A DNA stretch of 64,000 nt from contig NW_024704742.1 in assembly GCF_018977255.1 (NCBI RefSeq), positions 12,836,001 through 12,900,000 of the forward strand, written 5' to 3'. Both the position numbers and the translations under genes were made by a program. This DNA is from Callorhinchus milii (taxonomy: Eukaryota). Of this stretch, positions 44,142 to 47,157 are shown piece by piece (the first letter of the stretch is position 1; every line of letters begins with the position of its first letter). Below the pieces are notes generated by a model that was not told the DNA's origin, ran no database searches, and saw only the letters and a program-made list of their open reading frames with translations.

Positions 44142-44354
44142 ATATCCTTTGAATGTTTAGTTCAATCTGTACAGAGCGCTGCACTTTGTATTCATTAAAG
44201 CTGAATCCTGCTAAGTTAAGAGACGGCGTAGAGGAGCTATGTATAGATAGACCTTATGGAATTGCTTGAGTGATTACTTTCTTTTCCAGGAACAGGATTT
44301 GATTTTAGCAAAGATGAATCTACACTGAATGCATCAGCCTAGCTTTGTCATTAG

Positions 44355-44722
44355 CATGCTCCTCCAAGTCAGAAGGTTGTAGGTTGAAGCTGCACATCAA
44401 TGCAGTGCTGGGGGTGTGCTGCATTGTTGGAGGCATCGTCCTTCAGATGAGTCATTAACCCGAGGTCTCGTCTGCCTATCTATGTGGACTTTAAGATCCC
44501 ATGACACTATTTGAACAGAGAAGGGAGTTTCTCCCGGTGTCCTGGCCAACAATCCCTCAAATAAAATTGGTCACTCACTCCATGGCTGTTTGTGGGACAT
44601 TACTGGGTGCAAATCAGCTGCCGGGCTCACCCACAAAATGCACACTTTACAGTATTTCCAGTGAGGCACTTTTAGGCGTATCAATGACACGATAAGGTGC
44701 TATATCAAATACAAGAATGATT
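44355..44722 (+). mobile_element. Older SINE with Deu-domain-like core
   Basis: gtcagaaggttgtaggttgaagc head; ggaggcatcgtccttcagatgag...aagatcccatgacactatttgaa core. Related copies at 49285-49700 (-), 54200-54595 (+) and probably 58730-59110 (-). Confidence 0.65.
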
Positions 44723-44864
44723 ATCAGGACATAAGATGGCTCAGCTGTTTGCAGTTGTGATGATTGTTTCTGACAGTATTGATGGAAGGGTCAAGGACTT
44801 TGATTTTCAAACTTCTCTTTTAAAAAGAAAAGGTGAGGCAATGTCTGGATGTAAAATGGGTTTC

Positions 44865-45145
44865 AACAACAACAACAACAAACGTACATTTATAGAGCAC
44901 CTTTCACGTCGGGAGGACGTCCCAAGGAGCTGGACAGTCAGGGATCAGGACCCGAGCATGGGGGAGGGGTGGGGTAGGGGTGAGGGAAGGCAGAGAGGTG
45001 GGAGGCGACTGAAAGCATGATCGAAGATGGGTCCTTGAAGGAGGCAAGGGAGGAAGTGAGGTGAAGGGACTGTGGGATGGAGTTCCAGAGTGTGGGAGCA
45101 CAGAGGCTGAAAGCCTTGGGACCGATGGTAGGGCTTGACATCCGC
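44865..45145 (-). mobile_element. L2 LINE 3' end
   Basis: PTIGPKAFSLCAPTLWNSIPQSL; (AAC)n tail. Confidence 0.8.
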
Positions 45146-46344
45146 AAACTACACAGAACAGTGCCATTAAAATTTCAAGGATAATTTACAGCTAAAGGTT
45201 TTATTAGGATAAAGCTCTATATTAAATGCAAGGATTATTATTGCATTATGATTTCACTCCACATCAAGTAATTGCCTGACCTGGTGGCTCTAACTAGAAA
45301 GGGTTTGATGTCCAAGCACTACTACTTCCCAACATTAACATCCATCCCTGAAATAAATAATTGTTCCAATGGTAAATGCTGGTCATCGTAATGGAAACTT
45401 TTATTGCAAGGAACCTCTTCTAGCTCACTATTGTAGAATGAGCGGAATTAACAAACTCTTCTGTAAGCACCTCAAGTTTATCATTGTGTGAATAAATCTT
45501 TACGTTCTCAGATTAGTTCTCAGACTTGACCACAAAGCCTTGGGACGTCTTCCCAATGTGAAAGGTGCTCTATAAATATAATTTTGTTGTTGTTGATTCT
45601 TTGATGCCAGTGACACAGCTGACATTGTAATATTCAAGAAATTCAGCAGATAAGGCAAATTAGAGCAAAGGTTTCTCAATTCTGCTCATTCCAATAGGCC
45701 AGGAATAGTTTGTATTGTTGTGAACGTATTTTTATAATAGTTTTATAATAATAAAACGCATTTGGTAGAGCACTTTTTACATCAGGACAACGTCCCAAAG
45801 CCTTTTGTGGGATGTACTGTAAATTTGGGTGACTGTATGTTTTGTGGGAGAATGCGGCAGCCAATTTACAGACAGCATTGTCCCACAGTCATGGAGTGAA
45901 TGACCAATTTTATTTGGGAGATTGTTGGTCAGGCGCTGGGAGTCCCTAGAGAGTGTCTAGAGAGTGTTTATCTTCTTCACTTAGTTTTCTATCCTCGTGA
46001 GTTCCCCTGACTACGTGCCTCTGGCGCAGAAGTTGAATAGATGGTTTGCTTCCTCTTTCAAAACCACTGCTTATGATTTTAGGCAGCCACCAGGAAGGGT
46101 GAAGTCTCTCCTTTGCTCCAGGCTCTCCTCTGCTCTGGCCCTCATTTCAGGGAGTGTGGCAGAGATCAGCAACTTGGCAAAATGGGGAAGCCTGTTGGTT
46201 GTGTTGCGAGCAGCATCACTGAGTACCTCTGGACATTTCGCATTTTATTATCTGAGCATGCAAGGTATCTTGAGTAAAATGTCCGCAGAGACGAAACTTC
46301 CTCAGTAACACTGTGAAAAAGAAACCTCTACATTACAATCTTAG

Positions 46345-46850
46345 AGAACCATAGAAACCAAACAGATTTCAGCACAGAAGAAGGCCATTCAGCCCATTGA
46401 GTCAGTGGTAGCTCTTTTAAGAGCAAATCTTTCACTCCCATTTATCTACCCTTTCCTCATATCTCTGTAGTTTACTTCTTAGATACTTGTCTAGTTCCCT
46501 TTTGAAAGCTGATATGGATTTTGCCTCAACAACCGCTTCCCAGCAGGGCATTCAATATCCTAACTACTTTGTGCTTGTTTGCTATCTATCTTAAATTGGT
46601 GTCCTCTGGTCACTGCCTCACTGACCAGTGGAAATAATTTCTTCCCATTGACTATCAAACCCTTTGTATTTAACCCTTAACCTTTGTTCCAACAGAAAAA
46701 GCTCCATTTCCTCCAGTCTCTGTTCATAGCGCAAACCACTCCTTCTCGGTGTCATCCTAGTAAATATCCTCTGCACCCCATGTGTCACCTTGATGTCTTT
46801 TCTAAAATGGGGAGACCAAAACTGGATTCAATATTCTAAGTGTGGTTCAA
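46345..46850 (-). mobile_element. Decayed CR1 3' fragment
   Basis: agaaccatagaaacc tail, gaaggccattcagccc, and ggggagaccaaaactgg...aatattctaagtgtgg (reverse of PHLEY..QFWSP). Confidence 0.65.
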
Positions 46851-47129
46851 TTTTAATATTCTAACTATTATTGAGGTCTTTCTTTGGAATAGGATGGGAG
46901 CCATTATAGTTGTTTGATCAGAAGAGAATTTCCAACTTTGAGGCTTGCCAGTATTCCATATTTGTGGTCTAGATCAGCAGCATAAGTTTATTTCTTTGTA
47001 ATAACACAATGACTTAAAAATACTGATGGTATAAGCTCTTATTTAACGTGTTGTAATTTACTAATAGGATATCAGTTGTACACAAAAGTACATTATTTAC
47101 CACACTGTTTCCCTTAATAACACCATCAC

Positions 47130-47157
47130 ATGGCTGCAGGAAACCTAAAGATCAAAA
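47130..47157 (+). CDS. ABHD18: ABHD18 coding exon 6, 28-nt micro-exon: (Y)GCRKPKDQ(K)
   Basis: Encodes the conserved YGCRKPKDQ; donor AA|GTAAGT; needed to keep the frame between 44141 and 50882. Confidence 0.93.

Follow-up and report, generated by a model that had tools for sequence, protein, structure and literature searches.

Introns of the minor, U12-type class carry a conserved 5′ splice site and a conserved branch-point sequence, show no distinct polypyrimidine tract and have a short distance between branch point and 3′ splice site, with an optimum of 11–13 nucleotides (nt) (PMC3584512). One of them lies in ABHD18, which is listed as a minor-intron gene in human and mouse in the database MIDB (Olthof et al. 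2019, PMC6717393): the intron spans chr4:128009192-128011672 (2481 nt) in human ABHD18 and chr3:40916957-40919377 (2421 nt) in mouse Abhd18. Its 5′ splice site in the two species reads ATT/ATATCCTTT (the slash marks the exon–intron border) and is entered as ATTATATCCTTT, with scores of 90.0 and 91.6, while the branch site is given as TTCTCTTTGACC, with a score of 78.8 (PMC6717393). Here we describe the ABHD18 locus of the shark Callorhinchus milii in a stretch of 64,000 nt (assembly GCF_018977255.1, contig NW_024704742.1, positions 12,836,001 to 12,900,000; hereafter the window, numbered from its first letter). Intron 5 of the gene, at 44142-47129, is very probably a true AT-AC intron of the U12 type, which the minor spliceosome removes and which is orthologous to the ABHD18 minor intron catalogued in human, mouse and zebrafish.

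The resemblance to the human and mouse intron is close: the shark intron lies in the same gene, at the same protein position (after the residues ENPY) and in phase 1, shares the 5′ splice site ATATCCTTT, with T as the last base of the exon before it, and is of similar length (2988 nt). By contrast, the shark branch site, CCCTTAAT, is nearer the consensus than TTCTCTTTGACC. An intron of the same position and phase and of the minor class is thus found in other species.

Two further described systems can be compared with this locus. Cross-talk by exon definition between AT-AC and GT-AG introns has been reported (Wu & Krainer 1996, Science 274:1005, as cited in PMC3584512). In ABHD18, likewise, exon 6 lies between a U12-type 3′ splice site and a U2-type 5′ splice site, but this exon has just 28 nt, so that the complexes at its two ends would be separated by about 40 nt. 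Neuronal micro-exons of the SRRM4 type measure 3–27 nt, usually a multiple of three, and are alternatively included. Exon 6 is like them in its very short length, but its 28 nt are not a multiple of three, its acceptor is of the U12 type, and it is frame-essential in all full-length models, skipping giving ENPY* (the asterisk denotes a stop); no sign of tissue-specific inclusion was seen, as judged from sequence and protein models. The interaction between minor and major spliceosomes is reportedly the subject of a 2020 preprint.

Signals and borders of intron 5

The identity of the gene rests on protein matches. With the 46-residue translation of 50883-51020 as query, 735 of 984 candidates were ABHD18-family proteins, the top named match being 'protein ABHD18 isoform X1 [Callorhinchus milii]' (P0002, 463 residues, 100% identity), and the Pfam family PF09752 was present in all 120 of the ABHD18 matches listed (the best 120 of the 735). 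When P0002 was aligned to the window by tblastn, identity was 100% on every exon; ABHD18 lies on the plus strand. The region around intron 5 is laid out as follows, with the basis of each assignment in brackets:

44057-44141, plus strand: exon 5, 85 nt (tblastn at 100% identity to P0002, boundary search, sequence)
44142-47129, plus strand: intron 5, 2988 nt, predicted U12-type AT-AC intron (sequence, boundary search)
44142-44150, plus strand: predicted U12-type 5′ splice site ATATCCTTT (sequence, motif count, frame test)
47108-47118, plus strand: branch-site region TTTCCCTTAAT (sequence)
47128-47129, plus strand: terminal AC, predicted U12-type 3′ splice site (sequence, boundary search)
47130-47157, plus strand: exon 6, 28-nt micro-exon ATGGCTGCAGGAAACCTAAAGATCAAAA, followed by GTAAGT (sequence, tblastn, boundary search, frame test)
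47138-47139, plus strand: AG within the micro-exon, ctgcAG/GAAACC, which may act as a U2-type acceptor and lies 10 nt downstream from the U12 one (sequence, frame test)
47158-50881, plus strand: intron 6, 3724 nt, U2-type, GTAAGTATT ... gctttttgtggctAG (sequence, boundary search, frame test)
50882-51020, plus strand: exon 7, 139 nt, (K) + 46 residues (protein matches, tblastn, boundary search)

A preliminary description of the window had assigned the gene to ABHD18 and had placed an intron at 44142, behind an exon ending ENPY-T, with U12 AT-AC signals comprising a branch-like site, a short spacer and AC; it had further described a 28-nt exon closed by GTAAGT, lying between a U12-type acceptor and a U2-type donor, with the catalytic GxSxG exon next downstream. 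These points were all borne out by the sequence, the protein matches and the boundary search.

In the boundary search, GT, GC or AT donors and AG or AC acceptors were allowed up to 20 nt to either side of the approximate exon edges, on condition that the translation equalled P0002. A single splice solution was obtained over ten exons and nine introns, comprising eight GT-AG introns and intron 5 as AT-AC; no GT/GC-AG pair within ±20 nt of the edges of intron 5 yields P0002. Shifting both borders of intron 5 by 1 or 2 bases leaves the spliced product identical, because AT is repeated at both ends, and the AT-AC register is the one chosen by the U12 consensus, as far as sequence can assign it.

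On its 5′ side, the intron opens ATATCCTTTGA at 44142, directly after GAA AAT CCT TAC T, the end of exon 5 at 44141. Compared with the U12 pattern [A/G]TATCCTT(T) at the first intron base, ATATCCTTT matches at 9 of 9 positions, right after the exon end fixed by homology. The 3′ side reads ctgTTTCCCTTAATaacaccatcAC/ATGGCTGCAGGAAACCTAAAGATCAAAA/GTAAGT. It holds the branch site CCCTTAAT at 47111-47118, which departs from TCCTTAAY at one position (C for T at the first), and a 9-nt spacer separates TTTCCCTTAAT from the AC. The termini form a matched pair, AT (44142-44143) and AC (47128-47129), and not a mixed one. The branch adenosine is presumed to be A47117, at a distance of 12 nt from the final base of the intron, 47129 (A47116 would be 13 nt away); given this presumption, the distance falls within the optimum for U12-type introns. 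The stretch from the branch site to the AC (AACACCATC) is A/C-rich, with a single T.

The U12 motifs by themselves are not beyond chance. ATATCCTT, counted on both strands, occurs five times in the window against 2.1 expected, a number reached in 10 of 100 shuffles, and TCCTTAAY with at most one mismatch has 98 occurrences where 99.9 would be expected. What is non-random is their placement: the 5′ motif sets in exactly where protein homology puts the end of exon 5, and the branch-site motif lies 12 nt ahead of the base where homology resumes in exon 6. As a rough estimate from motif frequencies, the chance of both being so placed is about 1e-6. A second perfect copy of ATATCCTTT, at 49000-49008 (plus strand) in intron 6, was considered as a decoy or cryptic donor and rejected: no exon evidence adjoins it, and the motif count is within chance.

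The RNA components of the minor spliceosome are encoded in the same genome. When the 991-Mb assembly was searched at Rfam cut-offs, genes for the small nuclear RNAs U11, U12, U4atac and U6atac were all found above these cut-offs (U12, 133 bits; U11, 105; U6atac, 105 and 53; U4atac, 100). The second U6atac-like match (L004; G000:C14:12235371-12235565, minus strand) is 195 nt long, against 125 nt for the other, and scores 52.9 against 105 bits; this longer copy may be a variant or a pseudogene. A 7-bp duplex of -6.6 kcal/mol is predicted between the 5′ end of U11 from this genome and the 5′ splice site. The RNAduplex prediction for U6atac and the 5′ splice site fell outside the usual 5′ box, and nothing was drawn from it. 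In the interval 39000-52000, on both strands, there was no Rfam match at gathering scores, and therefore no small nucleolar RNA or other known RNA in those introns.

These elements suggest how the junction would be processed. ATATCCTTT and CCCTTAAT would be bound jointly by the U11/U12 di-snRNP (small nuclear ribonucleoprotein), the branch A, 12 nt ahead of the AC, would attack the 5′ splice site, and U11 would be displaced by U6atac. The other end of the 28-nt exon would be joined by the major spliceosome via GTAAGT, where bound U1 might give cross-exon help across the micro-exon, as other genes lead one to suppose.

Reading frame and protein models

The frame ties the micro-exon to the catalytic exon. 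Exon 5, which follows a normal ...ttcttAG acceptor, encodes 28 residues and the first base of the next Y codon; exon 6, read as AT GGC TGC ... GAT CAA AA, encodes (Y)GCRKPKDQ(K); and exon 7, with ...ggctAG upstream and GGCCAC/GTAAGT at its 3′ end (51020), encodes GISMGGH, which contains the GxSxG nucleophile motif as G-I-S-M-G. In frame tests, retention of intron 5 gave ENPYYIL*, the reading (T)AT ATC CTT TGA reaching a stop after three extra codons, as the preliminary description had noted. The length of exon 6 not being a multiple of three, its skipping gives ENPY*, and the same product resulted when exon 5 was joined to the AG inside exon 6. Of the routes tested from exon 5, only AT-AC splicing leaves an open frame up to and into the GxSxG exon. 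Since the other routes from exon 5 stop at or just after ENPY, a full-length enzyme with the GxSxG exon would need the minor-spliceosome step.

Protein records give this junction indirect support at the transcript level. P0002 has an identical sequence in NCBI and in UniRef (V9KD02) and equals the translation of the splice solution; the V9K... entries of UniRef probably derive from elephant-shark complementary DNA. A Logan contig from a related organism, which at only 2141 nt must be spliced RNA, encodes a 461-residue protein (P0001) that is 91% identical and has the same ENPYYGCRKPKDQK junction. We then considered a set of 125 models, made up of the 120 listed of the 735 matches and five shark-cluster members. 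ENPY is present in 83 of them, and in 76 of these 83, from lamprey to human, it is followed as in ENPYYG[CY]RKP..Q. The seven aberrant ones comprise four with ENPYYIL (from lamprey, the frog Leptodactylus, flagged 'LOW QUALITY', dingo and macaque) and three from primates with ENPYY/RSSL.

An eighth aberrant model, among 84 that span the junction, is P0125 (GSLL/RSSL; UniRef A0A4W3I916, 432 residues), one of six members of the shark cluster. It lacks exactly LENPYYGCRKPKDQK, that is, 15 residues at the junction, and runs from ...GIGSLL directly into RSSLRNV, which implies an intron without recognisable splice sites. The accession series of A0A4W3I916 presumably stems from the Ensembl annotation of Callorhinchus milii. 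The preliminary description had expected predictors confined to GT-AG sites to mis-annotate this junction. This holds for a minority, the 8 of 84 models, one of them from Callorhinchus milii, but not for the current NCBI model of that species, which has the junction right. In lamprey, the UniRef model P0005 reads ENPYYILRKPKAQ where NCBI models of Lampetra read ENPYYGYRKPKAQ. As 'YIL' is the translation of T/AT ATC CTT, P0005 reads into an ATATCCTT donor, and we infer that all four ENPYYIL orthologue models translate T/ATATCCTT.

The AG inside exon 6 may itself serve as an acceptor. Of the 125 models, 12 have xKPKDQ joined to other upstream exons, x being R, W, L or M; these 12 are predicted mammalian isoforms, none of them from the shark. 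These four residues all have codons ending in G, which fits an exon starting G AAA CCT and hence suggests use of the internal AG; the shark AG at 47138-47139 would, however, be kept by the G-C-R codons anyway. An extended proposal would treat exon 6 as a conserved unit with two acceptors, the U12-type AC (47129) and, ten bases further on, the U2-type AG (47139). Only the minor route would be in frame from exon 5, while other upstream exons with U2-type donors might use the AG, so that the spliceosome engaged would decide between the full enzyme, an N-terminally different form and a dead transcript, a switch that would date to the base of the vertebrates. We consider this proposal quite unlikely.

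Orthologous introns and rival explanations

The preliminary description had allowed that the intron might already be catalogued in orthologues, and this proved to be so: it is classed as minor in human, mouse and zebrafish (PMC6717393, PMC11347168). Table S8 of Olthof et al. 2024 gives the orthology of human minor introns across 263 species in MIDB v2 (PMC11347168). Its column 115 corresponds to ENSG00000164074, Homo_sapiens_4_128009192_128011672_F, the human ABHD18 minor intron (PMC11347168), and includes these entries:

Danio rerio: minor
Callorhinchus milii: non-canonical
Petromyzon marinus: non-canonical
Branchiostoma lanceolatum: major-like
Nematostella vectensis: protein_ortholog (no orthologous intron)

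In that study, 'non-canonical' denotes a 5′ splice-site score below 50, and the shark data come from Ensembl 99 models on the older assembly 6.1.3; 495 minor introns are counted among about 215,000 in Callorhinchus milii, and U11, U12, U4atac and U6atac are recorded as found (PMC11347168). The shark label stands in contrast to the perfect minor 5′ splice site that the window holds at the junction demanded by the protein. Because P0125 lacks exactly the 15 junction residues, we read this label as a probable gene-model artefact, and a labelling error is probable for both shark and lamprey.

Several observations nonetheless weigh against the assignment of intron 5 to the minor class or against its great age. 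The published label for the shark intron is, as it stands, one of them. The branch site has a mismatch at its first base, and the choice of branch A is an assumption. The pyrimidine fraction over positions -22 to -3 of intron 5 is 0.70, not below that of the GT-AG introns (0.50–0.75), although this count includes the pyrimidine-rich branch site, which accounts for the likeness. None of 14 sequencing runs of one organism is recorded as RNA (13 cover part of the stretch, and nine are guessed to be RNA). Finally, the minor status may be no older than the vertebrates, given a major-like intron in amphioxus and the lack of an orthologous one in Nematostella.

Taken with the 'YIL' read-through signature of the lamprey model, the shark sequence dates the ABHD18 minor intron to the ancestor of jawed vertebrates or earlier, with the vertebrate root as its probable origin. 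Most likely, intron 5 is spliced constitutively and has been retained since at least the jawed-vertebrate ancestor. The shark and lamprey labels in this widely used table most likely go back to gene models in which the AT-AC junction and the 28-nt exon are lost or shifted, so that conservation of minor introns at the base of the vertebrates is slightly under-counted. Full-text literature searches returned no paper on ABHD18/C4orf29 as a minor or U12 intron gene, the gene appearing only in supplements, and it is absent from the supplements of PMC7507305 and PMC7367187. The ABHD18 minor intron is thus already known, and what is added here is the probable labelling error for shark and lamprey and a firmer date. 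The biological weight of this is small: minor introns are a well-described class, and ABHD18 is one already listed in human, mouse and zebrafish.

Could the junction instead be an annotation artefact, true transcripts using nearby GT-AG sites or omitting the 28-nt exon? Other joins are indeed present in 8 of the 84 junction-spanning models (four ENPYYIL, three ENPYY/RSSL and one GSLL/RSSL). Yet these aberrant models imply non-canonical introns, and the 'YIL' that four of them share is ATATCCTT translated and points back to the U12 site. Moreover, no GT/GC-AG pair in the range searched reproduces P0002, exon skipping or use of the internal AG leads to an immediate stop, and YG[CY]RKP..Q is kept across the range from lamprey to human (76 of the 83 models), all of which makes an artefact very unlikely. 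Removal of the AT-AC intron by the major, U2-type spliceosome is conceivable in that AT-AC termini are also known outside the U12 class (PMC3584512). The 9-of-9 match of the 5′ splice site to ATATCCTTT, the TCCTTAAY-like branch site 12 nt from the 3′ end and the classification of the orthologue as minor in human, mouse and zebrafish (PMC6717393, PMC11347168) speak against it, and we hold it to be extremely improbable.

A different question is whether intron 5, once assigned to the minor spliceosome, acts as a control point, with ABHD18 output set jointly by its slow or regulated splicing and by the early stop that follows when it is retained. Such gating, raised in the preliminary description, would accord with the ENPYYIL* product of retention and the ENPY* products of the other exon 5 routes, with the published general model of U12 introns as rate-limiting (PMC3584512), and with a cryptic-exon event (CAT9) recorded for several tissues inside the minor intron of human ABHD18 (PMC6717393). 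However, an in-frame stop early in a retained intron is usual for any intron, and gating is a general hypothesis for all U12 introns for which we found no ABHD18-specific support. In the supplement of Olthof et al. 2019, ABHD18 occurs in only four of the eight files examined, namely the mouse-human list, the expression file, the alternative-splicing table and the coordinates (PMC6717393). It is named nowhere in the supplement of Olthof et al. 2024, in a copy that is possibly incomplete (PMC11347168); this supplement includes at least one gene-name list of introns responsive to inhibition of the minor spliceosome, seen as mouse and zebrafish fragments. We therefore regard gating as unlikely, and constitutive removal of intron 5 by the minor spliceosome as the preferred reading.

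Gene layout and other features of the window

The remainder of the gene follows from the same splice solution. The ABHD18 gene extends beyond the end of the window, which contains these parts:

24410-62764, plus strand: ABHD18 coding region, part in the window (splice solution for P0002 residues 1-392)
24410-24501, 26299-26383, 36583-36683 and 40013-40091, plus strand: ABHD18 exons 1-4 (splice solution for P0002)
54789-54878, 60708-60809 and 62390-62764 or beyond, plus strand: ABHD18 exons 8-10 (splice solution for P0002)

A second 5′ end is suggested by P0124, a UniRef shark protein of 474 residues, whose first 40 residues run from intron 1 (26174) straight into exon 2. By this protein, 26174-26383 would form an alternative first exon that runs on into exon 2 without a break. 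P0124 has the same ENPY/YGC junction as P0002.

Long stop-free frames lie in the introns of ABHD18, at 42978-43601, 52973-53665 and 39038-39856 on the plus strand and at 56410-57117 on the minus strand. They look like reverse-transcriptase tails of retroposons of the LINE (long interspersed nuclear element) type, with peptides such as ...FTIYINDLDE... and ...LEYCVQFWSP.... Intron 3 holds a CTCA-type microsatellite of 34 copies at 37769-37900. Upstream of ABHD18, about 16 kb of the window (3430-19334) consists of stacked tandem-repeat arrays: a 20-mer in 114 copies, a 33-mer in 32 (97% matches), a 25-mer in 115, a 62-mer in 48 and a 17-mer in 135 (92% matches). The strand composition is extremely skewed at 12-16 kb, with a GC skew of 0.68 and an AT skew of -0.73.

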